DNA from: Candidatus Woesearchaeota archaeon
GTDB lineage: Archaea > Nanobdellota > Nanobdellia > Woesearchaeales > WJKL01
Length of the DNA: 49,230 nt
Reading direction: 5' to 3'
NCBI GenBank assembly: GCA_018221125.1
Contig: JAAOYC010000036.1
Span: 1 to 49,230 of the forward strand
Below are positions 2,121 through 35,632 of the stretch, one piece after another. The notes under the pieces are model-generated. The model worked only from the letters and a program-made list of their open reading frames with translations, was not told the origin of the DNA and made no database searches. A program made the translations under genes and the position numbers. Every line of letters starts with the position of its first letter. Within the stretch, counting starts at the first letter, position 1.

Positions 2121-2144
2121 AAAATCAGAATTCTATTCTCTATT

Positions 2145-2239
2145 GGGTCCATGGCTTAGTCTGGTTATAGCACTCGACTGATTCAATCAGGGTGAAGCTC
2201 TTAACCGAGATGTCGCGAGTTCGAATCTCGCTGGACCCA
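2145..2239 (+). tRNA. intron-containing tRNA, most likely tRNA-Lys(CUU) with a 20-nt intron at 2177-2196
   Basis: Acceptor GGGTCCA/TGGACCC plus discriminator A; D loop with GG; T arm GCGAG-TTCGAAT-CTCGC; removing 2177-2196 gives anticodon arm CTCGG-CTCTTAA-CCGAG (perfect 5-bp stem, U33, CUU, A37). Confidence 0.8.
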
Positions 2240-2308
2240 TATTTTCTAAAATTCACGAAGTAAAGTTAGCTTTGCTAACATACTTTGTAAATTCTCTCTA
2301 ACTCTCGA

Positions 2309-2350: not shown

Positions 2351-3172
2351 ATGTGGAATCCATTATCATTATTTAGAAAGCCAAAACCTTTAGAGTTGTC
2401 AGTAGAAGAACTTTGGGAAATGGCTTTGGATAAACCCTCTGGGCAGGATGGAGGCAGAAAAGTTCTTTTAGTCGTTGAAAACCAGGAATTTAGATTTGTG
2501 CCCTGTGCAGTTTCAGAAACTGCTCAAACATACTTGGATGAAACAGGGGATGTTGAAAAGGTATTAAGGTATGTTGCGAATGCATTCTATATTTACAGAG
2601 ATACTGCCTGTCATGGTTTTTTGGCACCTCATTATAAGGTAGATGGTGCTTATGAATGGCCTAAACCAGTAAAATTCTCATGGGAAAGCATTGATGCAGT
2701 GATTATTGGAGGGGAATATGTGAATGGACCAATACCTGAGGATGGAAAAGCAAGGGTGATGAAGGAAGTAGGGGATAAGATTGAAGAAACTGAAATAAAA
2801 TTTAATAATCTAAAAAATGCAGAAGGAGAGGTTTTTGAACAGATTATTACAAGGGAGGAGAGTGTGAGAGATATTATTCCTGGAAAAGACCAGTTACAAA
2901 AAGAGCTCAAATACAAAATTGATAATTTAAAAGATGTTGGCTTTATAGGAATGCAGGACTGGCAGACCCGTTCATTAAGAGTTTATGCAAATCCTTTCTA
3001 TCATATGATCTGCGATTTGCTGGAAGGCAAAGTCTCTAGAGGGGAAATTAGAGGGTATGTTGAAGATTACTTAGCATGCATGACTAAATCATACAAAACG
3101 ATTGTTGGAAGATACAGGAAACATAGATTTGAGAAAATAAATCCAGATGCTCTTATGTGGAATTTATTCTAG
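2351..3172 (+). CDS. hypothetical protein
   Basis: 273-aa ORF directly behind a consensus promoter; no family recognised. Confidence 0.65.
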   Translation: MWNPLSLFRKPKPLELSVEELWEMALDKPSGQDGGRKVLLVVENQEFRFVPCAVSETAQTYLDETGDVEKVLRYVANAFYIYRDTACHGFLAPHYKVDGAYEWPKPVKFSWESIDAVIIGGEYVNGPIPEDGKARVMKEVGDKIEETEIKFNNLKNAEGEVFEQIITREESVRDIIPGKDQLQKELKYKIDNLKDVGFIGMQDWQTRSLRVYANPFYHMICDLLEGKVSRGEIRGYVEDYLACMTKSYKTIVGRYRKHRFEKINPDALMWNLF

Positions 3173-23999: not shown

Positions 24000-25523
24000 A
24001 TGGCTAAGGCAATAATTTTCCCTGTAAATAATAAAGGAGGAGTTGGAAAAACTTCAATCTTAACAGATATTATTGCTGCACTTTCAAGAGGATACGCCAC
24101 AGGAGTTATTGATTTTGATCTTCAGGCAAGCATGGCAGGCACTTTGATCAGAGACCTTTCTATAGGAAATAGAAGATTAGAATTTTATGATGAATTAGAA
24201 GTGCAAAAAGTTCTATTGCAGGAAGGAACAACTCTTGTTTTTTCTGACCCAATGAGAAGATTAAGATTAGAAGTACAGCCATCAGAAACGAATCTTGCTG
24301 TTTTTCCAGTAGGAATGTTATATAATAATCCTGATTGCAGAAAAAAACTAGAGGGAATTATTCAGGATGACTTTGGTTCTGTAGATGTAATTGGTATGGA
24401 CCTTCCTCCTGTACCAGACCCTGCATTAATCTTTGATTATAGTTTGAAGCCGGTTGTTGAAATTTCTGGGGATGCAACTCTTTTCCCAATAGTTGTTGCA
24501 ACTACAGAGCACAACTCTCTTCAAATTGGCCTGGACCAGTTTACAGGAGTTTATGATTATCTTTTATCACTTGGTGTTGAAGAAGAAAAAATCAATCCAA
24601 TATTAATGATTAATAAAGTAAGGGCTGAGTGGAATAATGATATAAAAGCATTCAGCAGAATCGAAGAAAGGGATATAGAAAAATTAGAAGCCTTTGGATT
24701 AATGAATGAATATGGTTCTAAAATTGTTGAAGAATTAAAAAGAGAAGGAATTACCTATCATGTAGCATGGCTGCCTTATTTTCCTCATTTAGATTCAGAA
24801 AGAGCTGATGGGCGCTTTTCTTTTTATTTCGGAACTGCTCCAAAAATTTTCCACTTTCCAGAAATATATGATTTACTGGACAGAGAAGGTTACCTAAAAA
24901 ATGACCTTACTGATGTAGAGGAAAAATTATTTGTTGCGCAAATTCACTCCCTAAGTAATTTCTTATGTTCAAAATTCAAACCAGCTTCTACAACATTTTA
25001 TTCACAAAATCTTGAAAGAAAGAATGTAGCAGAAGTTCAATCAAGATTAATAGAAAGCATGAAAGAATCAAGAGAAAAAGTTTTTACTGAATGGGCGGAG
25101 AATCCTAATAGTAAGAATTACCAAGCCTGGGAAACTAATGAAATTACTGCAAAAAGTTGGGGATATAAGTATAAACATTATCAAATTGATATTCCTGGAA
25201 CCGCCATTCCAGTAGAAGTTATGATACAAGCCATATATAATACATCAGAAGAAATTTACACAATAAGCGGAAGGCAGCATGATCCTGATTACAAAGAAAG
25301 ATTAACAAAGATTTTGACAGAAGGAGATACTTCTTCTCTTAAATACGCAGGCCTTCATAATCTATCTGTTAAGTTTGATGGAGAAGGAGACAGCTCAACC
25401 TGGGAGATAGAAGTAAAATTAAAAAAAGAAAGCTCATATGAGCAGACGATAAATGAAAGGTTTCCTGTGGATAAAACAATGGATTTTTTCCTAAGAAATT
25501 TAAATGATGCATTATCTAAATAA
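24000..25523 (+). CDS. ParA/MinD-like P-loop ATPase with a ~250-aa uncharacterised C-terminal region
   Basis: Deviant Walker A NNKGGVGKTS with signature Lys; IDFDLQAS; the C-terminal half is not recognised. Confidence 0.7.
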   Translation: MAKAIIFPVNNKGGVGKTSILTDIIAALSRGYATGVIDFDLQASMAGTLIRDLSIGNRRLEFYDELEVQKVLLQEGTTLVFSDPMRRLRLEVQPSETNLAVFPVGMLYNNPDCRKKLEGIIQDDFGSVDVIGMDLPPVPDPALIFDYSLKPVVEISGDATLFPIVVATTEHNSLQIGLDQFTGVYDYLLSLGVEEEKINPILMINKVRAEWNNDIKAFSRIEERDIEKLEAFGLMNEYGSKIVEELKREGITYHVAWLPYFPHLDSERADGRFSFYFGTAPKIFHFPEIYDLLDREGYLKNDLTDVEEKLFVAQIHSLSNFLCSKFKPASTTFYSQNLERKNVAEVQSRLIESMKESREKVFTEWAENPNSKNYQAWETNEITAKSWGYKYKHYQIDIPGTAIPVEVMIQAIYNTSEEIYTISGRQHDPDYKERLTKILTEGDTSSLKYAGLHNLSVKFDGEGDSSTWEIEVKLKKESSYEQTINERFPVDKTMDFFLRNLNDALSK

Positions 25524-26328
25524 GTCTTTTCTCTTCTAAATTTCCGACAACTATTAATGGAATTCCTTTTCTAATGATTAAATTATCACCTAATCCAAGA
25601 TCATAAGTCAGATGAGGACCATCTATGTATAGTTTTCCTTGTCTTGTCAAAGATTTTAGTTCTAATTTATCTGCAAACTGTGGTTTTTCTCCTCTTTTTT
25701 CTTTTACTAGATATTGGATTTCTGCTGAATCAAGAGGCATCAATATTCCTTTATTTTGATACATCCTTGCAGATGAGCCGGCTGCTGTGCATGCCAGTAT
25801 TCCACAATCTAGATGTTTTTCACCATCTAATACATATAGAGTGGGGGCTCCTGGATTTGAATGAGCTATTAAAACATCATTAAGCACTGGCTCTGGAATT
25901 GTTTCTCTATTAAGCAAAAGTTCTAATCTATGCAATCTAGTTCTTGGAGCATCAAACATATCTATAAAATTATCAGTATTAGCGCAGCAATAAAATCCTT
26001 TGCTATCTTCTGGGTCTGAGTTTACTCCAAGTATTGGAGTGTCTTTAACATAATGAGAAACTTCTAAGAATGTTCCATCTCCACCAACAGAAATAACCAA
26101 ATCTTTATCAGTTATTTCAGTCAAATCTCCCCTGTAGATAATATTATAATTTAAGTCTAATTTATCTAATCCATCAACAACCTTTTCCAATGATTTTTTC
26201 TGTATTTCATGGCTTTTCTTTATTGCTTCTGCATCAGGGTCATTGCTTTGGATAAACTTAACAGTATCTTCATGACTTCCGTATAATTCAAATGTGCTTT
26301 TTTTATACACAACTAGTATGTTTTTCAT
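25516..26328 (-). CDS. nadK: NAD kinase
   Basis: DLVISVGGDGTFLEVSHYV and TPILGVNS motifs; 270 aa. Confidence 0.85.
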   Translation of the reverse strand: MKNILVVYKKSTFELYGSHEDTVKFIQSNDPDAEAIKKSHEIQKKSLEKVVDGLDKLDLNYNIIYRGDLTEITDKDLVISVGGDGTFLEVSHYVKDTPILGVNSDPEDSKGFYCCANTDNFIDMFDAPRTRLHRLELLLNRETIPEPVLNDVLIAHSNPGAPTLYVLDGEKHLDCGILACTAAGSSARMYQNKGILMPLDSAEIQYLVKEKRGEKPQFADKLELKSLTRQGKLYIDGPHLTYDLGLGDNLIIRKGIPLIVVGNLEEKRLI

Positions 26329-26903
26329 GTTCCCATAACATTGCGCTTTTCTGTTTCAATACATTCAGAGTATTTATATCCCTTAGCAATAGCTTCTAAT
26401 CCAAATTCTTTTATAAACCTTTTATCAAGATTGTTCTGTTTTATATAGTCTGCAACTGGCAGGGGAACTAAAGATTCCCAATCTTCATCATTTGCCATCT
26501 TGTATCTTACTTCTGTTGCAGTTATTCTTGTCTGCCTTCCAGGAAGTATTAATGAGTTTGGGCGGATAATATCATAGCTGCCTTTAAGCAGGTGATTAAC
26601 ATATTCATTTCCTGAAACAAAGCAGTCCAAAGTGCCATAATGTTCTATAATATAATCAGTCCATTTTTCTTCATCGCAAAAATCAGGGATATAGATTATT
26701 TTGTAATTATCATATTTCGGAGCTAAAATAGCGTCAATCATATCTTTTGTTTCTTCTGCTGTGAATGAATTCCTGGCATTGTATTCATTGCAGCTGCCTA
26801 TTCCTATTGTGACATGCTCTGCCTGCTCGCAGATTGATTCAAGCAGTGCTGCTCCTCCTTTATGCAATGGCTTGAATCTTCCTATGATTCCTGCTTTTTT
26901 CAT
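26325..26903 (-). CDS. nadM: archaeal-type nicotinamide-nucleotide adenylyltransferase-like protein (NadM-like) with variant HKGG motif
   Basis: GIIGRFKPLHKGGAALLE...HVTIGIGSCNEYNARNSFTAEETKDMI; ATG at 26903 overlaps the upstream stop as ATGA with GGAGGT Shine-Dalgarno. Confidence 0.7.
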   Translation of the reverse strand: MKKAGIIGRFKPLHKGGAALLESICEQAEHVTIGIGSCNEYNARNSFTAEETKDMIDAILAPKYDNYKIIYIPDFCDEEKWTDYIIEHYGTLDCFVSGNEYVNHLLKGSYDIIRPNSLILPGRQTRITATEVRYKMANDEDWESLVPLPVADYIKQNNLDKRFIKEFGLEAIAKGYKYSECIETEKRNVMGT

Positions 26904-27904
26904 CCTAACCTCCATATTTTTTCAGCTATGTCTTGTATTTTTTTCTTATCTTCAATAACTTCAACCCAGTCTTTTGGAAATATCAATCCATTTTTTGCTC
27001 CGCATAATGCTCCATAGATTGCCCCTGTTGTATCGCAATCTCCTCCATAGTTTACTGTTTCTAACAGGCCTTCTATTGGATTATCCCAATATTTTTGAAA
27101 CATAAACAAGGTAAATGGAGGTGATTCAAATGCTAAAGATGTAGTTTTAAGATGATTATATGCTAATTCACATTCAGCTTCGGCATTATCTTTAATCCAT
27201 TTTAAGCGAGATTGGAGATTACCTTTTTCATATAATGTAGCATCTTTATCTAATGGTTCTTCCTGTTTTATACACACTTCTATGATTGAATCAAGGAACT
27301 CTCTTTTTGATGGATTTTGAAGTAAAGTATAGATGGCATGTGCTTGTACTATCCCGCTAGCTATTGCTCTTTTATCTAGGTGTGTTGCCCTTGCTATTAA
27401 TCCTGCAAATTCCAAGCCTTTTTCGTAATCCTTTGCATCCATATAAAGTCCTATTGGAGACATTTTCATGGCAGGACCATTGCCTAATCCTGGCTTGACT
27501 CCTGATTCTAAAGGAGAAATTCCTTTTTCTAGGTTATTAAATGCCATTTTGGTTGATCCACCAAATCCACCTGTGGGCCTATCTTTGTAGGCTTTTAGCT
27601 GTCTTTGGCATATGTCTTCTAGATTTAGATAACCCAAGTCAGCAATAGATTCTGCTATTGCTATTGTTAAAATCGTATCATCAGTATAACTTCCTTTTTT
27701 CATATTTTTCCAGTACCTTAGCTTTCCGAACTCATCTTTTTTAACAATCTTCCCTTGACCATCTTTAATAACAAAGGGTTCTATCGGCTCTGTTATTCTC
27801 CCTAAATATTTCTTAATTCGTTCTCTTTTCCAGCCTTCAACAGGCATGCCTATTGTATCTCCTATTGCACATCCTACTAATGTTGCTATATATTTGTCTT
27901 TCAT
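26900..27904 (-). CDS. ADP-ribosylglycohydrolase family protein (DraG/ARH-like)
   Basis: LVGCAIGDTIGMPVEG at the N-terminus and NYGGDCDTTGAIYGALCGA near the C-terminus. Confidence 0.85.
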   Translation of the reverse strand: MKDKYIATLVGCAIGDTIGMPVEGWKRERIKKYLGRITEPIEPFVIKDGQGKIVKKDEFGKLRYWKNMKKGSYTDDTILTIAIAESIADLGYLNLEDICQRQLKAYKDRPTGGFGGSTKMAFNNLEKGISPLESGVKPGLGNGPAMKMSPIGLYMDAKDYEKGLEFAGLIARATHLDKRAIASGIVQAHAIYTLLQNPSKREFLDSIIEVCIKQEEPLDKDATLYEKGNLQSRLKWIKDNAEAECELAYNHLKTTSLAFESPPFTLFMFQKYWDNPIEGLLETVNYGGDCDTTGAIYGALCGAKNGLIFPKDWVEVIEDKKKIQDIAEKIWRLG

Positions 27905-28347
27905 TTTTCATATCCTCTGAATTTTAGGTATTTTCTTAAGATATCAGCATGGTCAAATGCAAGCTGATTATTTTCAACTAATCTTATTATTTCATTGATG
28001 GTATAGACTTTTGCATCTTTTGCATCATCTCCTGCTTTTAGTTCACCATAACCTTTTGCAATATAAGTTACACTTATCATATGGTCTCTTGAGTCTCTAT
28101 CAGGGTCTGAAAATACAAATGGGGTGTCTGGATTTTCAAGGATAACTTCCAGATTTGTTTCTTCTTTTGCTTCTTTTCTTGCATTATCTTCCAGGCTTAT
28201 TCCCCATTCTGCAAATCCTCCTGGAATTGCTAATCCATATGGAGGGTTTTTTCTTTCAATCAGGACAACTCCTTTTTGGTATTCTATTATGATATCTGTT
28301 GTTGGAATTGGATTCCTGTATGTTTGTACTTCTTCTTGTTTTGGCAT
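27901..28347 (-). CDS. Nudix hydrolase (ADP-ribose pyrophosphatase-like)
   Basis: PGGFAEWGISLEDNARKEAKEETNL aligns to the Nudix box (R of REUxEE is K here). Confidence 0.75.
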   Translation of the reverse strand: MPKQEEVQTYRNPIPTTDIIIEYQKGVVLIERKNPPYGLAIPGGFAEWGISLEDNARKEAKEETNLEVILENPDTPFVFSDPDRDSRDHMISVTYIAKGYGELKAGDDAKDAKVYTINEIIRLVENNQLAFDHADILRKYLKFRGYEK

Positions 28348-28353
28348 TTTTTA

Positions 28354-29202
28354 TCACCTATATTCTAGTGTTATTTTTCCAACTGGAGGCAGCTGCCTTT
28401 TATGTTCAGTTGTTTTGTGTCTAAAATCAACATCCTGGATTATTTTTAGGTTGTATCCTGTTGCTTTTTGAATTTCTTCTTTAGTCAATCCTTGATCATA
28501 TCCATTTTGGATTATTTCTGCTTGATTGTAATTATAGCCAAGTTCTCCTTCATCTGTTTGCCCAGCCCATAAGCCTGCTGCGGGTGTTCTTTTTACTAAA
28601 TCATCTGGAACACCTAAATAAGTTGCTAGTTCTCTGACTAATCTTTTTGGAAGATTTCCTAAGATGTTATTGTCAACAGCTCCGTCCCCTCTTTTAGTGA
28701 AATATCCAAGAACATAATCCTCATCCCTGTTTCCTGTTCCCATTATTCTGAGATTATTGGCAGCGCTATACCTGCTTATGACAGTTGCCCTTATTTCTGA
28801 GTACAGGTTTCCAATATCAAAGTCTCTTTGCAGTGCTTCTGGCAATTCTTTTATGTAAGCTTCTGCCATTGGCTGGATTGGAATTACTTTTGCTTCAATA
28901 CCTAATAATTTAGCAACTCTTAACCCTTCTTTTTCATCTTTTGGATTGTTTGCTTTGGATGGCAGGATCAATCCAAGGAGTTTTAGCTGTGTTTTTCCTG
29001 GATTTTCTTTATTATATTTATCAAATGCAGATTTTGTTAGATAAGCAACTGTTGTTGAGTCAATTCCTCCTGATAATCCAATAACTCCTCCATTAGCTCC
29101 TGTTCCTGCTGTCCAATTCAGTATTTGGTCTGCTAGTTCTGCTGCTGCTTGAGCAGGACCATATTTGAATTCAGCTTTTTTTATGGTTTTTTCCAGGTTC
29201 AT
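28354..29202 (-). CDS. nadE: NAD+ synthetase (ammonia-dependent type)
   Basis: PP-loop GLSGGIDSTTVAYL; 282 aa. Confidence 0.85.
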   Translation of the reverse strand: MNLEKTIKKAEFKYGPAQAAAELADQILNWTAGTGANGGVIGLSGGIDSTTVAYLTKSAFDKYNKENPGKTQLKLLGLILPSKANNPKDEKEGLRVAKLLGIEAKVIPIQPMAEAYIKELPEALQRDFDIGNLYSEIRATVISRYSAANNLRIMGTGNRDEDYVLGYFTKRGDGAVDNNILGNLPKRLVRELATYLGVPDDLVKRTPAAGLWAGQTDEGELGYNYNQAEIIQNGYDQGLTKEEIQKATGYNLKIIQDVDFRHKTTEHKRQLPPVGKITLEYR

Positions 29203-30212
29203 TTTATCAGGCCTCCTAAATTGTCATATTTCTCAAATTTTGATAATATGCTTTTTACTTTTGCAACCCTTTGTTCTAAACTTCCTTTTAAAACTACGAA
29301 TGGAACTTTATGCTCTATCAAGTAAGCAATTGTTCTTTTTTGCATAACTTCCCTGTTAGCATCTCCTGATCTGTCCCAAGTGTCATCATAAGGAATATCA
29401 TTATCGCAGAGGAAAAATAGGTCATATCTTTGGATGCATTTTTCAGCAATCGCCTCTAATTCAGGGGCTGCTTTTCCATGATAGTATAATGAGAAGAGAT
29501 AAGTTGTTATTGCATTTGTATCTGTAAAAAGATACTTGTTTGCATTTAACAAAAGTTTATCTTCTCTTTCTATGTGGCCTTTTGCAATCTCAGTAAGCTG
29601 ATCTAAGGTCAATCGTCTTTCAATTTGATGTGTTGCCCAGTATTCTCTTCCATATTCTGGCATAAACACTGTGTTGAATTCTTTTGCCATCCTTTCTGTG
29701 ATAGTTGATTTGCCGCTTGAAGGAGCTCCCATGAAAACTATATTTGCAATCAGGTCTTTGTATACAACTGGATGCAGAAATTCCCTGTATTTGAATGGGT
29801 CTTGTCTTATCTTTGTTGCTGAGACAGGAACTTTTTGCCTGGCCATGTCAATTGTCCTGTTTTCTGCGCCCAGTGCAATTCCCATATGTTCTCCATAAGG
29901 CTCGCTTGAGTAAAATCTTGTTATATCTTTTCCTTCAAGCAGGTCAAGGATGTAATTCTCTTGTTTTTTCATTATCTCCATTGTATATCCTACTTCTTTA
30001 GGACCATCCCATGCTTCAATTATATTAACAGGAGGGTAGATTGTCTTTATCCAGCTGCATCTGACAGTTAATGGAACACTGATTATTTCAGGACAATCAT
30101 AGACAATAGCAGTTAACTCATCAACTTCTTTTAATGCAGTATCAACTACGTATTCATGTCCTTTATGAAAAGGTGCAAACTTTCCTAAAAACAACCCTTT
30201 AGCTTTGGGCAT
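29199..30212 (-). CDS. nadR: NadR-type bifunctional NMN adenylyltransferase / ribosylnicotinamide kinase (no HTH)
   Basis: GLFLGKFAPFHKGHEYVV (HxGH) plus P-loop FMGAPSSGKST; GGAGG Shine-Dalgarno precedes the ATG at 30212 (the ORF track starts at 30251). Confidence 0.8.
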   Translation of the reverse strand: MPKAKGLFLGKFAPFHKGHEYVVDTALKEVDELTAIVYDCPEIISVPLTVRCSWIKTIYPPVNIIEAWDGPKEVGYTMEIMKKQENYILDLLEGKDITRFYSSEPYGEHMGIALGAENRTIDMARQKVPVSATKIRQDPFKYREFLHPVVYKDLIANIVFMGAPSSGKSTITERMAKEFNTVFMPEYGREYWATHQIERRLTLDQLTEIAKGHIEREDKLLLNANKYLFTDTNAITTYLFSLYYHGKAAPELEAIAEKCIQRYDLFFLCDNDIPYDDTWDRSGDANREVMQKRTIAYLIEHKVPFVVLKGSLEQRVAKVKSILSKFEKYDNLGGLIK

Positions 30213-30909
30213 TTTCCAATTTCCTCCAGTTATAGTAACCATATATTGCATTTACCAGATATGCTGACCACATGACCAACATGCTGATGTCATTGCCTCC
30301 TTTCAATAGGATGTAAAACCACATGTAAACAGATACAACATCAATTGCTATCCACAATAGCCATTGCTCTGTAACTCTCTTGACCATAAGTATCATGGCA
30401 ATTACAGAGAGTACTGTTGATGCTGAGTCAACAAAAGGAAGTGTTCCTCTCAAGTACAGCAAAAACAACCCGTATCCAAAGATTCCTGCAACAGAGATGA
30501 CTGCCCAGTATATTCTTTGTTTTACATTTAGGTGCTTGATTACAACATCATCTTTTCCTTTGATTGCATTGGAATGTTTTTTCCAGTAATACAATCCAAC
30601 AAACTGCATTGGAAGGAAATATAATGCATTTAGCATAACTTCTCCAAAATACCTGCTTTGAAATGCAATGTATGCATACAATACAACATTTACAACACCA
30701 AAGTAATAGTTGCTGATCTTTCCTTTTGCAACCAACACAACACACAGCATACCTGTCAAGGATGTGACTAATCCTATGATGCTGTCTTTCCATGCAAAAA
30801 ACAGATAAATGTTGATTAGAGTGAAAGATATTAGCCAGATTCTTTCGAATAATGTCCAGTCTTTTGCATAATTCCTTACACTGTCTCCCCATCTTTTTGT
30901 TGGAATCAT
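30199..30909 (-). CDS. pnuC: nicotinamide riboside transporter PnuC
   Basis: 236 aa, about 7 hydrophobic helices, Trp-rich (WLISF, YYWKKH, WLLWIAIDVVSVYMW), adjacent to nadR as is classic. Confidence 0.8.
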   Translation of the reverse strand: MIPTKRWGDSVRNYAKDWTLFERIWLISFTLINIYLFFAWKDSIIGLVTSLTGMLCVVLVAKGKISNYYFGVVNVVLYAYIAFQSRYFGEVMLNALYFLPMQFVGLYYWKKHSNAIKGKDDVVIKHLNVKQRIYWAVISVAGIFGYGLFLLYLRGTLPFVDSASTVLSVIAMILMVKRVTEQWLLWIAIDVVSVYMWFYILLKGGNDISMLVMWSAYLVNAIYGYYNWRKLENAQS

Positions 30910-31580
30910 TTTAGGATATCCTCCAAAGTTGTGAAGATAGCTCCTGCTTGTTTCATCTCTTTTATTGCTAGTTCTGCATCTTCTGGATCTAGATTAACTG
31001 CTGCAATTGCATCTTCTAGAACATAACATTGGATTCCTCTTTCCTGCATTCCAACAACAGCTGCCTTAACACAATAATCTGTTGCAACTCCATAGACAAT
31101 TGCTTCTTTTACTCCCATTTGTTTTAACAAAGGTTCAACTGCAGGATTTGTAAAGACATCATAATGTTGTTTTTCAAATACAATATCTCCTTCACCATCT
31201 GCAATCTCTGCTAACTCTGCTGTTGTATATCTTCTGAAGTTATCTCCTTCAGCTATTTTATTTTCAACAACATATGCTTCATTATTTCTTATTTCTGGGA
31301 TAAAATCAATTCCAAATGTTCCATCTGCATTTTTTTGTCCATATTGCTTATCCATGCAGTGTTCTGGAAATGGTCCTCCATTTGCTAAGAGTTCTGTATC
31401 ATCTTTGAAATGTCTATCTCTACTTGCAGCTTTTCTGATGCCTGCTTTTTCTACTTTTTCTTCAGTTTTGTCAATTTCTGCTTTAATTTCTTCTGCACCA
31501 GGTACATACAGTCTTCCATCTTTTTCCCTCATAAAGTCCCCTTCTGGGTCAACTCTATAAGCAATAAGTTCGTTTGTCAT
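30906..31580 (-). CDS. pncA: nicotinamidase / isochorismatase-family cysteine hydrolase
   Basis: VYGVATDYCVKAAVVG catalytic-Cys motif; NAD-operon context. Confidence 0.8.
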   Translation of the reverse strand: MTNELIAYRVDPEGDFMREKDGRLYVPGAEEIKAEIDKTEEKVEKAGIRKAASRDRHFKDDTELLANGGPFPEHCMDKQYGQKNADGTFGIDFIPEIRNNEAYVVENKIAEGDNFRRYTTAELAEIADGEGDIVFEKQHYDVFTNPAVEPLLKQMGVKEAIVYGVATDYCVKAAVVGMQERGIQCYVLEDAIAAVNLDPEDAELAIKEMKQAGAIFTTLEDILK

Positions 31581-31581
31581 T

Positions 31582-32583
31582 TTATTTACCTCCTAAGTAT
31601 TTTTCAAATCTTTGTTCAGCTCTTGCTTGATCCCATTTGCCATCCCACAATGGATTCCAGCTGACATAATCATAAAGATCATAGACCTTGCTGAAATCCT
31701 GCCCCATATCTTTATAATCAATGATTATGTTGGTTGCAATATAGACTCCACTCTCTTTGAGCTGCCTTGCGATTGCGATTGTTTCTAATGTATCTCCAAC
31801 ATTCCTATTCATGTTTCTCAATACTTCTGGAGTATCGCTCTGTATTGGTGAATGATAAACTTTGATCAGTCCTTGTTCAGCAGTTTCTATCAATTCATCT
31901 TTACATCTTACTGTGATAGACGGCTCAACATTCCTTATAGAGAATGGTTTGCCATGTTTTTGTGCAATTGCACACCATTCCTTAACTTGTTTTTCTGTTG
32001 GGCTGTCTGCAATTAACAGGATATCATCAAAAGCCAGGAATTCTTCTTCTAACCTTGCTGCATCATAAGCTTCAAAATCTCCTCTTGTAACTCTAATTGT
32101 ACAATATGTGCATTTGTTTGGACAACCTTTTCCAATTCTAAGAGGGTACATATTTCTAAACAAATGACCTTGTTCAAATTCATCTCCTCCTTCAGCAAAA
32201 TCATCAATCCAAAATGGTTTTTCAAAATGAACTAATGTCAAATCTTCAAGGAATTGATAATTTTCTCTTGGAGTATCTAATCTTTGCACTAATTCTGGCA
32301 TTGGAATGTCTTCTCTTTTTGAAAGACAACCACTTATGAAATATTCCTTACCCGGATTTTCTTGCTGAAGCGCCTCCATAGTCTTAAAATCATTAAGGAT
32401 AGCAAGATCTGTAACCTGGCATGAAAGTACAACGAGATTATCTGCCTCTACAGGATCAAGGGTTGTCTTTTCTTTGTGCTTGTTTGCCCAACTCAATGCA
32501 TCTGCCCAGACAGACATACAGGCTGCGCTTGTCATATACACTTTTCCTTCCAGTGAATCTGCATCTTTCATTTTAACCTCCAT
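31582..32583 (-). CDS. radical SAM protein, methylthiotransferase-like but without a TRAM domain
   Basis: GKGCPNKCTYCTIRVTRG (CxxxCxxC); three spaced N-terminal Cys (AACMS, LSCQV, SGCL) like the UPF0004 domain; start overlaps the pncB stop (TAATG). Confidence 0.75.
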   Translation of the reverse strand: MEVKMKDADSLEGKVYMTSAACMSVWADALSWANKHKEKTTLDPVEADNLVVLSCQVTDLAILNDFKTMEALQQENPGKEYFISGCLSKREDIPMPELVQRLDTPRENYQFLEDLTLVHFEKPFWIDDFAEGGDEFEQGHLFRNMYPLRIGKGCPNKCTYCTIRVTRGDFEAYDAARLEEEFLAFDDILLIADSPTEKQVKEWCAIAQKHGKPFSIRNVEPSITVRCKDELIETAEQGLIKVYHSPIQSDTPEVLRNMNRNVGDTLETIAIARQLKESGVYIATNIIIDYKDMGQDFSKVYDLYDYVSWNPLWDGKWDQARAEQRFEKYLGGK

Positions 32584-33716
32584 TATAGTATTCTTTCCAA
32601 GTCTTGATTAACTCTTGGCGGTCTTCCAACTTTGTGGATTATGTTTTTCATCTGATAGCTATTTGGCATATTGAAATCAACAGTGTTAGCAGTTTCTCCA
32701 ACTCCGATGATGTCTGCGGTTGCAGTTCTTACATTGTCAAGGAATCCTGCTCCGATGCTGTCATAAAGCTGTTTTCTGAAATATTCCTCTCCTTTATTGA
32801 ATGCCTTGACTTTCTCTGGATTGCTGAAGCCTGAGCTTAGGACAATGCCAACTCTTTCTTCTGGGTTAAATGCGTCCATTGCTGTTCTTAAGGCATTTAC
32901 AGCATAGACATTAACTCCTGTTCCTTTCCAGTATTTTCTCTTTCCTTCAATGCCTCCTTCTGCAATGTTCTCTCCGCAGGTGTCAACTCTGACTGCGTTT
33001 AGTGCTGGCAGTTCTTTCATCAATCTTAGAGTATCTGTGATTTCTTTGTTTGCATAATCAACTAATGCTATTCTTGGGATTTTTTTGTCCATGTATTTGT
33101 CAAAAGCTTTTGTTGATTCTAAAACTCCGTTTTCTATTCCATGATAATATGCATAGATGTTTTCTAATGCATGAGGAATTGTTCCTAGTCCTTTTTTTCC
33201 AAATGGTTCTGCACCATTATCAGTTGAGCAATCTTTTGCTCCTCCTTCAAATGCTGCTTTTGTGATTGCCTGATCCATATTATAATGCCAGTGCCTTGCT
33301 CCGAAATAGAAAATTGGGCGATCTCCTGCTAATTCAACTACTTGCTCAACTTGTCTTTGGATTGCTTCAAGATCTGGCTCTTTCTTGTCATTCTCTCTTG
33401 TTATTGCAGCTGCAATCACACCTAAGTAAACTGTTTCTAATTCCATGATTTCCTGAACAGGGGCAATTATGTTCATCAAAGTATCTTTTGGCTGATAGAT
33501 TTCTCCATCTTTTTTTGCATAGATTCTGCCTCCTGCTTTGACAATATCAGAATTTTGAGTTATGATTTCAACTGCTTCATCTATTCCAGCGACTTTGCCA
33601 GGCCCTTGCCTGACAAAGACCTGCATGTTAACCCATGGATTCAGTTTGTCTGCTTTCAGTATTTCATTTGCCCTTAGGAAATATTTGTCTGCATATTTTT
33701 TCATTTTGTTTTTCAT
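32583..33716 (-). CDS. pncB: nicotinate phosphoribosyltransferase family (archaeal short type)
   Basis: KYADKYFLRANEIL...VFVRQGPGKVAGIDEAVEII and VRVDTCGE; start moved to the ATG at 33716 (AAAGGTGA Shine-Dalgarno) because the track's first 27 codons cover the operators. Confidence 0.8.
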   Translation of the reverse strand: MKNKMKKYADKYFLRANEILKADKLNPWVNMQVFVRQGPGKVAGIDEAVEIITQNSDIVKAGGRIYAKKDGEIYQPKDTLMNIIAPVQEIMELETVYLGVIAAAITRENDKKEPDLEAIQRQVEQVVELAGDRPIFYFGARHWHYNMDQAITKAAFEGGAKDCSTDNGAEPFGKKGLGTIPHALENIYAYYHGIENGVLESTKAFDKYMDKKIPRIALVDYANKEITDTLRLMKELPALNAVRVDTCGENIAEGGIEGKRKYWKGTGVNVYAVNALRTAMDAFNPEERVGIVLSSGFSNPEKVKAFNKGEEYFRKQLYDSIGAGFLDNVRTATADIIGVGETANTVDFNMPNSYQMKNIIHKVGRPPRVNQDLERIL

Positions 33717-33729
33717 CTGTTTCACCTTT

Positions 33730-33744
33730 GTGTATTTTATACAC
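33730..33744. promoter_or_regulatory. candidate NrtR operator GTGTAT-TTT-ATACAC
   Basis: 15-bp palindrome just upstream of the pncB Shine-Dalgarno; core TGTA-N5-TACA. Confidence 0.55.
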
Positions 33745-33782
33745 TTACTATAATCAAAGGAAATAAAACATTTATCTCCTTC

Positions 33783-33797
33783 GTGTATTGTATACAC
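33783..33797. promoter_or_regulatory. candidate NrtR operator GTGTAT-TGT-ATACAC
   Basis: 15-bp palindrome immediately downstream of the operon TATA; core TGTA-N5-TACA. Confidence 0.55.
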
Positions 33798-33803
33798 TTA
33801 GTA

Positions 33804-33819
33804 CTTTATAAAGATTTCG
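33804..33819 (-). promoter_or_regulatory. BRE+TATA promoter of the NAD operon (minus strand CGAAATCTTTATAAAG)
   Basis: Consensus BRE+TATA between the nrtR stop and pncB. Confidence 0.6.
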
Positions 33820-33840
33820 ATAGTGTAGTATATACATTAA
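33819..33840. promoter_or_regulatory. 22-nt box GATAGTGTAGTATATACATTAA (contains TGTA-N5-TACA)
   Basis: Near-repeat of the box at 34489-34510. Confidence 0.5.
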
Positions 33841-34488
33841 CTATTTAGCCTTTTTGAAAGAATACAGCTGAGCAGGCCTGTGTGCGCCTTCCATCTTAGT
33901 GCCTGGCATTTTTTTGAGGATATTAAGCTCTTTTAGCTTTTTCCTGAAGTTTCTTTTGTCTAGTTTCTTGTCAAGAATGATCTCATATGCATTCTGCAGC
34001 TCTGTTAATGTGAATTCTGCAGGCATTATCTGGAAAGCAATGTTGGTATTTTGTATTTCAAATCTTAAGTGAGATAAAGCATTATCTAAGATTTTTTTGT
34101 GGTCAAATGCCAGTTCTGGAAGCCTGTAAAAAGACTGCCATTTTGCCAGTTCTGCGTCTGTTGATGCATGAAGTTTTACTTTTTCTCCAGCAATTAATGC
34201 AAGGAATGGAATTGTAACAACTCTGCCTCTTGGATCTCTGCCAACATTGCCAAATGCATGAAGTTTTTTTAAGAGAATATTTTTAACACCTGTTTCTTCT
34301 TCTAATTCTCTTTTTGCTCCATGTTCCAGGTTTTCATTGATGTGAACAAAACCTCCTGGCAAAGCAAACTTTCCCTTGAAAGGAGGAATTTTTCTCTTGA
34401 TCAGAAGTATTTTTAGCTCTTTGTTTAGGATTGTAAAGACAACTGCATCTGCTGTAACATAGAACCTATCTTTCCTGAATTCTGCCAT
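33841..34488 (-). CDS. nrtR: NrtR-family regulator (Nudix domain plus C-terminal winged helix)
   Basis: PGGFVHINENLEHGAKRELEEETGV (Nudix box) and C-terminal FTLTELQNAYEIILDKKLDKRNFRKKL typical of NrtR. Confidence 0.8.
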   Translation of the reverse strand: MAEFRKDRFYVTADAVVFTILNKELKILLIKRKIPPFKGKFALPGGFVHINENLEHGAKRELEEETGVKNILLKKLHAFGNVGRDPRGRVVTIPFLALIAGEKVKLHASTDAELAKWQSFYRLPELAFDHKKILDNALSHLRFEIQNTNIAFQIMPAEFTLTELQNAYEIILDKKLDKRNFRKKLKELNILKKMPGTKMEGAHRPAQLYSFKKAK

Positions 34489-34510
34489 GATAGTGTAGAA
34501 GTTACATTAA
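34489..34510. promoter_or_regulatory. 22-nt box GATAGTGTAGAAGTTACATTAA (contains TGTA-N5-TACA) at the nrtR start
   Basis: Lies between the nrtR TATA (about 34511-34520, minus strand) and its ATG; in the divergent region shared with the gene at 34574. Confidence 0.5.
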
Positions 34511-34573
34511 TATTTAAACTTAACTGAAAAATCCATCAGGTTTAAAAACAGCCTTGATTATAATTTATTGAGA

Positions 34574-35632
34574 ATGACTAAAATATTCAAACCAAAAGAT
34601 GTAATAAAGTATGCTGAAACAAGGCTTTTTGGCAGTAATGTTGCTGCTAATGATGTTAGAAGCATTGAATTACATACTGCAGTATTGCCTTCTCAGCTTC
34701 TTGAAAATGTATTAAAAGAAGGTTTTGAGGAAGTTGAGCAGGAGAATGGTCGTGAACCAATTTTTTTCAAAGAAGGAACTTTGTATATCCCTCAATACAG
34801 TGGATTTGGAAGGGGAACAAGATATGAAGAGATGATTAAGGCATATATTGAGGCAAGCGGAAAGAATATTAAATTTACAGAACGTTTTCCTGAAGATGAT
34901 ACAAGAAAAACATATCTTTATAGTTATTTTGCATATGATCTGGTAAAAAGATTGTTTCTTAAAGAGGGGATGGATACTATTAATACAATAATATTTGGAC
35001 CTGTTGATGCTATAGCTAAACAAGCCAATGTTGTTAAGAAAGCAAATAATGAATATCTTCCTTTCCAATATCTGTATATTAATGATGGGTTTGTTTTGAA
35101 TCTAAGTTATGTTTATGCTGACCAGGCTGGAACTCTGATTGAAAAAATAATGCATGAATACAATGCAATGTATAAAAAAGATGGAAAAGACAGAGAAATA
35201 AATTTCCTGATGTTTGGAAGAGTTGGCGGACTGGCAGATGGATTAAAAAGACATGATCTAGTTTATCCAACAGGAGTAATCAGTGAGGTTGATTTGAAAA
35301 AAGCATCAGGATTGGTCCTTCCTTTTGAAAATGTTCTTGCGCAAGGAGAAAACCAGGGGCTTAATTTCAATCCAGTCAGTATTGTAAATGAAGAGTATGA
35401 GACTCTTGAAGAAGCTAAGAACAAAGGATCTATTTGCGTTGAAAAGGAATTAAAGAAATCTGTCTCTGCTATAAGCGAAGCTAATGAAAACTATGCAGGG
35501 CATGTTATTGGAAGATTTGGCTTTGTAGGTTATGTTTCTGATTTGCCTTTGAAAGGAGATAATCTGGCAACAGAATTAGATTCTGACAAAGGAGAGCAGG
35601 ATGCTGTAAAGAAGATTATTGAGAATATCTAA
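34574..35632 (+). CDS. hypothetical protein, C-terminal half weakly nucleoside-phosphorylase-like (PNP/UDP superfamily)
   Basis: FLMFGRVGGLADGLKRHDLVYPTG and CVEKE...VGYVSDLP resemble the RxGxxGG and E(M)E...SD motifs; weak, by eye only. Confidence 0.4.
   Translation: MTKIFKPKDVIKYAETRLFGSNVAANDVRSIELHTAVLPSQLLENVLKEGFEEVEQENGREPIFFKEGTLYIPQYSGFGRGTRYEEMIKAYIEASGKNIKFTERFPEDDTRKTYLYSYFAYDLVKRLFLKEGMDTINTIIFGPVDAIAKQANVVKKANNEYLPFQYLYINDGFVLNLSYVYADQAGTLIEKIMHEYNAMYKKDGKDREINFLMFGRVGGLADGLKRHDLVYPTGVISEVDLKKASGLVLPFENVLAQGENQGLNFNPVSIVNEEYETLEEAKNKGSICVEKELKKSVSAISEANENYAGHVIGRFGFVGYVSDLPLKGDNLATELDSDKGEQDAVKKIIENI

Follow-up and report, generated by a model that had tools for sequence, protein, structure and literature searches.

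The radical S-adenosylmethionine (SAM) enzymes MiaB, MtaB and RlmN all act on C2 of adenine in RNA, and RlmN and Cfr are radical SAM methyltransferases for adenine C2 or C8 of rRNA and tRNA. The salvage of nicotinamide adenine dinucleotide (NAD) is regarded as fully mapped; its Nudix-type regulator NrtR reportedly has palindromic boxes ahead of pncB, pncA, nadE, pnuC, nadR and similar genes. To our knowledge, no NrtR regulon has a radical SAM member and no NAD salvage route uses radical chemistry. Here, we describe a gene for a methylthiotransferase-like radical SAM protein without a TRAM domain, which lies among NAD salvage genes on contig JAAOYC010000036.1 of a Candidatus Woesearchaeota archaeon, analysed over a stretch of 49,230 nucleotides (the window). 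A literature search found neither a paper on this protein family nor a radical SAM enzyme or methylthiotransferase in NrtR regulons or NAD salvage. Judged from gene context, two separate clades, DPANN archaea and small-genome gut Bacilli, have taken the family into their NrtR-associated NAD salvage operons. There, the gene is predicted to share transcripts or regulation with pncA, pncB, nadE, Nudix, prs and nadD genes, as an accessory and not a core member. As far as sequences tell, the family represents a known enzyme architecture in an unexplained, reproducible NAD context.

The radical SAM gene occupies positions 31582-32583 of the minus strand, where its 333-residue frame is the sole open one; a plus-strand reading of the interval is ruled out by many stop codons. 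A previous interpretation of the DNA letters (the sequence-only reading) had pointed to the motif CPNKCTYC, i.e. C154, C158 and C161, and to three N-terminal cysteines (C22, C55 and C86) with the spacing of a methylthiotransferase auxiliary cluster. Both features are borne out by the family. In a set of 109 full-length members from the fetched loci, dereplicated at 90% identity, C154, C158 and C161 are present in every member and the six cluster cysteines in 108-109, which rules out a chance cysteine pattern. Moreover, 76 positions are at least 90% identical across these members, phage members included. The conserved motifs are CQVTD, PFW, FRxxYP, RNxEP, HxPxQ, ATNxIxDY and the C-terminal YxSWNP...A...R. 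Pfam places the Radical_SAM family at residues 150-302 (E = 1.9e-10), and UPF0004 matches residues 33-92 just under its 27-bit cut-off. TRAM gave no Pfam match in the 333 residues, and the protein ends ~30 residues past the radical SAM core, in agreement with the earlier description as a methylthiotransferase-like enzyme without TRAM. The nearest NCBIfam model is TIGR00089 (MiaB/RimO superfamily) with 73.7 bits against a cut-off of 251, and the MiaB, MtaB and RimO equivalogs reach 35-51 bits against cut-offs above 300.

An AlphaFold model obtained with a 36-sequence alignment had a predicted local distance difference test score of 95.1 and a predicted template modelling score of 0.92. A Foldseek search with this model ranked MiaB, MtaB and RimO first (E ~1e-13). 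The structural alignments span residues 12-330 of the model and end at residues ~350-375 of targets that are 421-451 residues long, and the unmatched C-terminal part of the targets is what we take to be their TRAM domain. The last 30 residues of the model instead form a strand and a helix specific to the family. None of the longer family members carries a TRAM domain, a size-range search for fused forms of 584-2000 residues found no fusion to TRAM or to an NAD enzyme, and no TRAM domain was seen in neighbouring genes of the family loci. Domain matches and model together describe predicted two-[4Fe-4S]-cluster enzymes, in which a MiaB/MtaB/RimO-type N-domain is joined to a radical SAM core without TRAM.

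Some members and distant relatives deviate from this layout. The phage-like member P0131 (L144:98-1525) is fused at its C-terminus to the Pfam WDGH domain, which is of unknown function (PF25311, E = 3e-36). No WDGH homolog was found in any family neighbourhood examined, and no paper on this domain was found. Five distant relatives (P0165, P0167, P0172, P0174 and P0182; 28-35% identity) are devoid of CxxxCxxC. Several relatives of this kind retain the three auxiliary-cluster cysteines and a C-terminal WxPxWxGxW and may be non-radical derivatives. The genome contexts of two others, P0183 and P0189, offered no clue.

A word-indexed search yielded 509 relatives of nearly always 325-360 residues; those with a name are assigned to Pacearchaeota/Woesearchaeota or carry an automatic MiaB annotation. 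Among 1.84 billion cluster representatives (50% identity), an exhaustive HMMER search gave 60 matches at E <= 1e-30 and 88 at E <= 1e-10. Below the latter threshold, the scores drop to ordinary methylthiotransferases of 420-440 residues with 22-31% identity. The family is monophyletic with respect to the canonical enzymes, with 100% support in the Shimodaira-Hasegawa-like approximate likelihood ratio test (SH-aLRT). By this branch support and the gap in E-values, it forms a family of its own and does not cluster with a characterised tRNA- or S12-modifying subfamily, a possibility that the sequence-only reading had raised. Canonical enzymes also exist beside it. All five bacterial host genomes tested carry two canonical methylthiotransferases (410-508 bits, above the cut-off) in addition to the family member, and the window genome has a separate methylthiotransferase-family frame of 449 residues (422 from its first Met; UPF0004 90 bits; isoelectric point 9.0). 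Hence the family does not appear to replace canonical methylthiotransferases. Domain content, cut-offs, tree position and the co-existence with canonical copies rule out an ordinary MiaB, MtaB or RimO, and the gene was filed under none of these names because it has no TRAM and falls below the cut-offs.

We collected loci of the family from GTDB species representatives (44), IMG/VR viral contigs (12) and metagenomes (154, of which 80 were kept). Three of the GTDB loci are archaeal, and ~40 are from uncultured Bacilli, Erysipelotrichaceae, Tenericutes and like-binned metagenome-assembled genomes of gut and rumen, with 45-52% identity. Neighbouring genes were called and clustered, and the clusters were labelled by Pfam and NCBIfam. 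Contexts were counted over the 63 dereplicated loci that are flanked by 3 kb or more on either side, and a locus was scored as an NAD locus if at least two core NAD gene families lay within 8 kb. The result was bimodal: 37 loci lie in NAD clusters, 26 have no NAD family and none has exactly one. The NAD linkage first seen in the window is therefore not unique to its contig but recurs in archaea and bacteria with differing gene orders. Among the 37 NAD loci, we found NadE in 33, PncB in 30, NrtR in 29, PncA and Nudix in 27 each, CinA/PncC in 20 and Prs in 19. The commonest direct neighbour of the radical SAM gene is NadE (15 times upstream, 4 times downstream), and genes for ADP-ribosylglycohydrolases share the cluster in seven loci.

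The typical bacterial order is PncA-PncB-Nudix-NadE-(small protein)-rSAM-Prs-NadD-CinA-NrtR-NAD kinase, rSAM denoting the radical SAM gene, and the typical archaeal order is PncB-PncA-NadE-Nudix-rSAM-PnuC-NadR-NADK-...-NrtR, NADK being NAD kinase. Archaeal clusters employ a phosphoribosyltransferase with QRPTase_N only and an NH3-type NadE, and bacterial clusters a three-domain NAPRTase and a glutaminase-fused NadE. On two long DPANN contigs, the radical SAM gene is accompanied by PncB, PncA, NadE, Nudix, PnuC, NadR, NAD kinase, a nucleoside deoxyribosyltransferase-like protein and NrtR.

Within the window, eleven tightly packed genes run in the same direction, and the radical SAM gene is the second of them (Table 1). 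Its position between pncB and pncA, as proposed from the sequence alone, is confirmed by Pfam and NCBIfam, which identify a type II phosphoribosyltransferase upstream and a nicotinamidase of the isochorismatase family downstream. The pattern TGTA-N5-TACA has four matches in the 49-kb window, all of them at the nrtR and operon promoters, against 0.43 expected, and none of 100 shuffles reached four. Since an NrtR-type gene lies upstream and these boxes sit at the nrtR and operon promoters, the radical SAM gene is assigned to a predicted NrtR-type NAD salvage operon with candidate operator boxes.

The upstream junction reads ...CTA TAA TGG AGG TTA AAA TGA AAG, such that the stop codon of the pncB-like gene and the first ATG share one A (TAATG). 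The second ATG, four codons downstream, has a GGAGG 5 nt before it, and the database gene call is 329 residues long; Met5 is therefore the likelier start. Consequently, the shared A described by the sequence-only reading is present, but the translational coupling to pncB that it had drawn from it is doubtful: the start in use is probably at 32571, and the TAATG overlap may not be real. With Met5 as start, 9 nt separate the two genes. The 1-nt gap to pncA is seen in the sequence just as that reading had it, and a GGAGG precedes the pncA ATG.

Table 1 Features of the radical SAM gene and its operon in the window, and RlmN/Cfr-like cores in other loci (prefix L).
Feature	Coordinates	Strand	Remarks
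TRAM-less methylthiotransferase-like radical SAM gene	31582..32583	-	333-residue open reading frame; likely start Met5 at 32571, giving 329 residues
N-terminal methylthiotransferase (UPF0004-like) domain, residues ~14-100	32284..32544	-	C22, C55 (CQVTD), C86 (GCL); Pfam UPF0004 23.9 bits; aligned to MiaB/MtaB/RimO N-domains
Radical SAM core, residues ~146-305	31669..32148	-	C154-x3-C158-x2-C161; Pfam Radical_SAM 150-302
Family-specific C-terminal strand and helix (Y-x-S-W-N-P-x-W-D-G-x-W-D-x(4)-A-E-x-R-F)	31591..31668	-	At the protein end, where canonical methylthiotransferases run on C-terminally
pncB-like type II phosphoribosyltransferase	32583..33797	-	QRPTase_N; nicotinate phosphoribosyltransferase models matched below cut-off
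pncA-like nicotinamidase (isochorismatase family)	30906..31580	-	
PnuC	30199-30909	-	
NadR	29199-30251	-	
NadE, NH3-type	28354-29202	-	
Nudix hydrolase	27901-28347	-	
ADP-ribosylglycohydrolase	26900-27904	-	
NMNAT-like, archaeal-type	26325-26915	-	
NAD kinase-like	25516-26328	-	
NrtR-type Nudix/winged-helix regulator	33841..34488	-	Directly upstream of operon; Pfam NrtR_WHD 1.6e-25 and NUDIX
Four TGTA-N5-TACA boxes, candidate NrtR operators	33731..34506	.	33731-43, 33784-96, 33824-36, 34494-506; pattern scan of window
RlmN/Cfr-like core	L016:12822-13724, L066:9226-10041		Same NAD cluster as radical SAM gene
RlmN/Cfr-like core	L073:763-1680, L125:994-1536		Adjacent to radical SAM gene

Three further observations concern this region and the rest of the window. 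The NMNAT-like protein scores 81-87 bits against archaeal NMNAT cut-offs of 127-181, and with NadR the operon holds two adenylyltransferases whose division of labour is uncertain. Divergent from nrtR, positions 34568-35632 (plus strand) encode a 354-residue protein without Pfam or NCBIfam matches; the fourth TGTA-N5-TACA box lies in the control region that the two genes have in common. ARAGORN places a tRNA-Asn of 97 nt at 2144-2240 (plus strand), with the anticodon ATT at position 38; its length and anticodon are unusual, and an intron or a miscall is possible.

Bacterial clusters show a palindrome of their own. Wherever a separate gap precedes the bacterial radical SAM gene, an AT-rich palindrome (TGTTATTAACA or GATATTAAT) lies ~35-43 nt before the start codon. 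In L007 and L032, the palindrome common to pncA, prs and pncB is found 37-42 nt upstream of the radical SAM gene. In its strict form, GTTA[AT]TAAC, the palindrome occurs at 60 sites in the 506 kb of 29 bacterial loci, against ~15 expected from shuffles. Of these sites, 47 lie at most 130 nt upstream of genes: 18 before unk8, 14 before pncA, 7 before prs, 2 before the radical SAM gene, 1 before pncB and 5 before others. In several bacterial loci, a small protein and the radical SAM gene form one unit behind such a box. Such a distribution suggests a shared operator, presumably one for NrtR. The gene most often behind it, unk8, encodes a soluble protein of 120-137 residues without Pfam or NCBIfam matches (L009:12692-13054, L014:11720-12124 and 12 more bacterial loci), and lies directly upstream of the radical SAM gene in four loci.

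In the family tree, the window gene belongs to an archaeal NAD-embedded clade (29 rows, 96% SH-aLRT), which is separate from the bacterial NAD-embedded clade (46 rows, 100% SH-aLRT). The deep branches are mostly phage-like or short contigs and poorly resolved, and phage-like members sit inside or at the base of both cellular clades. Mapping the label 'NAD context' onto the tree requires at least eight changes on well-supported branches, which argues for repeated recruitment into, or loss from, NAD clusters in both domains. Viral entries make up 74% of the nearest ESM Atlas cluster (score 0.99). Sampling of 200 other genomes of the window phylum brought up the family in one (G044), again next to NadE, and strong NadE matches in ~40.

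With these contexts at hand, we considered what the enzyme might act on. Very high conservation unites the copies from phages, archaea and bacteria, which argues for a single universal substrate. The sequence-only reading had suggested a pyridine nucleotide, a precursor or an NAD-pathway protein. The family is acidic, with a median isoelectric point of 5.7-6.0 and a net charge of -5 to -7 (4.8 and -19 for the window protein), and the canonical methylthiotransferases from the same search have a median of 8.4; this would speak weakly against RNA binding. Furthermore, some of the NAD clusters contain an RlmN/Cfr-like radical SAM core of ~270-305 residues, which matches positions 73-342 of the 355 in the RlmN model and is missing the first ~70. 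Because the RlmN and MiaB/MtaB scaffolds, each shortened at one end, both occur in NAD clusters, an adenine-containing free nucleotide is suggested as target. A third radical SAM type, MoaA/viperin-like and 267-301 residues long, is present in ~10 loci (L009:6157-6960, L059:14980-15885, L109:7132-8004 and ~7 more), which are bacterial NAD clusters and one archaeal one; its NCBIfam matches are all far below cut-off. Phage relatives of this third type were seen only in uncultured megaphage records of 630-735 kb.

We favour, with a probability of about 0.4, a free NAD-pool nucleotide rather than RNA as substrate, on which the enzyme would carry out a radical reaction of the (methyl)thiolation type. 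It would use one SAM to generate a 5'-deoxyadenosyl radical, and the auxiliary cluster would either deliver a sulfur or methylthio group, as in its relatives, or bind the substrate. The reaction would take place at a C-H bond of NAD, nicotinic acid adenine dinucleotide, ADP-ribose or a mononucleotide. Adenine C2 would be the most natural guess for the modified position, since MiaB and MtaB act there, and auxotrophic cells and phages alike would profit from the resulting modified NAD-related nucleotide. A wider proposal, which we put forward tentatively and with more doubt, is that an unknown radical modification, most simply (methyl)thiolation, of NAD, a precursor or a breakdown product provides a new metabolite or a salvage or repair step common to phages, DPANN archaea and gut Bacilli, under the ADP-ribose-sensing NrtR.

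Several findings weigh against a free NAD-pool nucleotide as substrate. In 26 of the 63 flanked loci (~40%) no NAD genes lie nearby; these are mostly phage-like, with many small genes in succession on one strand of an IMG/VR or metagenome contig and with terminase and integrase among the neighbours. The NAPRTase, NMNAT and NadE families are absent from four of five large phage records. A tRNA scan placed the radical SAM gene inside tRNA arrays in L088, L095, L100 and L080 and within 160 nt of a tRNA in L056 and L112, and 10 of 24 loci have at least one tRNA. RNA_ligase is the top Pfam family among the phage neighbours (three matches), in addition to single Thg1, T4 Rnl2_C and poly(A)/CCA-type head domains. 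In genome G156 of the window phylum, one contig has PncB (70% identical) and NadE at a distance of ~800 nt, as known from match coordinates only, and the family has no match at E <= 1e-30. With this genome and the rarity of the family in the phylum, the gene would be dispensable for salvage, as an accessory, horizontally mobile member of NAD clusters; a core step of the pathway is unlikely on the same grounds and by the far more frequent NadE. The acidic isoelectric point is weak evidence for the favoured substrate, and we know of no natural methylthiolated NAD-type nucleotide. As a separate observation, the PncB-like gene of G156 (C5:37447-38613), the closest relative in the phylum sample, has one in-frame TAG.

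The phage-like loci differ among each other. Across 150 neighbour proteins, no conserved phage neighbour emerged, as any Pfam family has at most three matches. Among GenBank phages, the family was not found at E <= 1e-10, nor does it have a PHROG, and the weaker matches are canonical miaB-like genes. Some loci contain NAD-related genes. In L080, Rnl2 is followed by the radical SAM gene and, 151 nt downstream, by a NadD-type adenylyltransferase, for which TIGR00482 gives 107 bits (cut-off 112). In L100, a Nudix gene lies ~600 nt downstream, and L116 has PncA-Prs-...-NadE-rSAM beside genes that it shares with viral contigs. The complete 276-kb phage behind L056 encodes one NAPRTase-family and two NMNAT-family proteins, one NMNAT gene lying 10 kb upstream. 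A PARP-domain gene is located 2 kb upstream of the radical SAM gene in L002. L088 and L095 have 18 tRNA or tmRNA genes each and are close relatives, hence not independent; in L088, the array comprises a tmRNA gene (2830-3166, tag AKPQRLAA) within 17 tRNA genes around the radical SAM gene. CUA-anticodon tRNAs of amber-suppressor type (L100:5836-5910 and L112:9026-9098; ARAGORN: tRNA-Pyl) may indicate stop-codon reassignment.

Since ~40% of the loci are phage-like without nearby NAD genes and several genes lie inside tRNA arrays, an RNA substrate has to be weighed. The enzyme could methylthiolate tRNA, at A37 or elsewhere, or other RNA, which it would recognise without TRAM, possibly via a partner protein, and its place in NAD operons could reflect co-regulation or hitch-hiking. 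The closest relatives by sequence and fold, MiaB and MtaB, are consistent with this, as are the RNA ligase (three loci), Thg1 and poly(A)/CCA-type nucleotidyltransferase genes near the phage copies; the placement in tRNA arrays is the best evidence for an RNA-related role. However, large-phage tRNA regions also gather unrelated accessory genes, and two of the arrays are from close relatives. The proteins moreover have no TRAM, fused or neighbouring, and are acidic where canonical methylthiotransferases are not, and the window genome and the five bacterial hosts checked already possess full-length canonical enzymes. An RNA substrate would also leave unexplained the recruitment into NAD operons in two separate clades and the shared operator-like palindrome. 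We regard it as unlikely, although no other alternative comes closer. NadE as the most frequent direct neighbour, the ADP-ribosylglycohydrolase genes in seven clusters and the PARP-domain gene of L002 would instead suit a RimO-like enzyme that methylthiolates or otherwise modifies a protein such as NadE, PncB or one related to ADP-ribosylation. Phage copies, however, mostly have no NAD enzyme partner in their genome and yet have the 76 near-invariant positions in common with cellular copies, which argues for one universal substrate and weakens this explanation. Furthermore, archaeal clusters have other NadE and PncB types than bacterial ones, and a conserved small gene for a partner or substrate common to all contexts was not seen. 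A protein substrate is the least probable of the alternatives.

Alternatively, the gene may be a phage-derived accessory for virus-host conflict, for instance one that changes or degrades an immune signal or nucleotide derived from NAD, and would enter cellular operons with mobile NAD modules instead of taking part in routine salvage. This would fit the phage-like deepest branches and the phage members in or beside both cellular clades, the 74% viral ESM Atlas cluster, the sporadic occurrence in cells (1 of 200 genomes of the window phylum) and the joint occurrence of PncA-Prs-NadE-rSAM with viral-contig genes in L116. Phage NAD reconstitution pathways (NARP) also mark NAD as a battlefield (bioRxiv 10.1101/2024.02.11.579819; PMC13464706), yet NARP1-3 include no radical SAM enzyme. 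Against such a role, cellular copies lie inside housekeeping-type operons with shared operator-like boxes and are stable across many species of the Bacilli clade, and no known defence or anti-defence domains are consistently adjacent. We consider this distinctly improbable, if slightly less so than a protein substrate, and retain a free NAD-pool nucleotide as the preferred reading.

A radical SAM enzyme in the NAD operons of two clades, under operator-like boxes also found ahead of pncA, pncB and prs, points to an unrecognised reaction of the NAD pool, and phages, in which virus-host conflict centres on NAD, pass the family on as well. If it acts on a free nucleotide, the enzyme would be the first of the methylthiotransferase type with a small-molecule substrate, and its gene would be a candidate for the origin of new NAD-derived metabolites, both in DPANN symbionts and in the gut microbiome. 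An RNA substrate recognised without TRAM would revise substrate recognition in this enzyme class and tie NAD status to RNA modification. As a single soluble protein of 330 residues, the enzyme is easy to test.

Among the described systems, MiaB and MtaB, the tRNA A37 C2 methylthiotransferases, come closest: they have the three-cysteine N-domain and CxxxCxxC core in common with the family and give the best NCBIfam matches. However, identity in the structure-based alignments is only 18-19%, the radical SAM protein scores far below the TIGR00089 cut-off, and in place of their TRAM domain the family has the ~30-residue WNPxWDGxWD C-terminal helix unit. They are basic and the family is acidic, with its genes in NAD operons or phages beside canonical MiaB/MtaB in the same genomes. 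RimO, the uS12 Asp88 methylthiotransferase, has TRAM and a defined ribosomal target, whereas no link to uS12 was seen for the family. Radical SAM proteins of the MoaA/NifB/PqqE family near nadV in a Vibrio phage (PMC3468402) are not members of the family. The phage pathways NARP1, NARP2 and NARP3 consist of Adps/Namat, Nampt/NMNAT and PnuC/NadR without a radical SAM enzyme (bioRxiv 10.1101/2024.02.11.579819; PMC13464706). They resemble the present case as phage-borne NAD genes, and some phages with a family member also have NadD-like, NMNAT, NAPRTase-family or PncA-Prs-NadE genes; the radical SAM protein, however, matches no NARP component, and most phage copies stand alone. RlmN/Cfr belong to another radical SAM family with another mechanism and are absent from the window, but their truncated core accompanies the radical SAM gene in four NAD loci, in parallel to the loss of TRAM in the family. 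Taken together, the window operon and the bacterial clusters fit the pattern of NrtR regulons, with the radical SAM gene as the difference.

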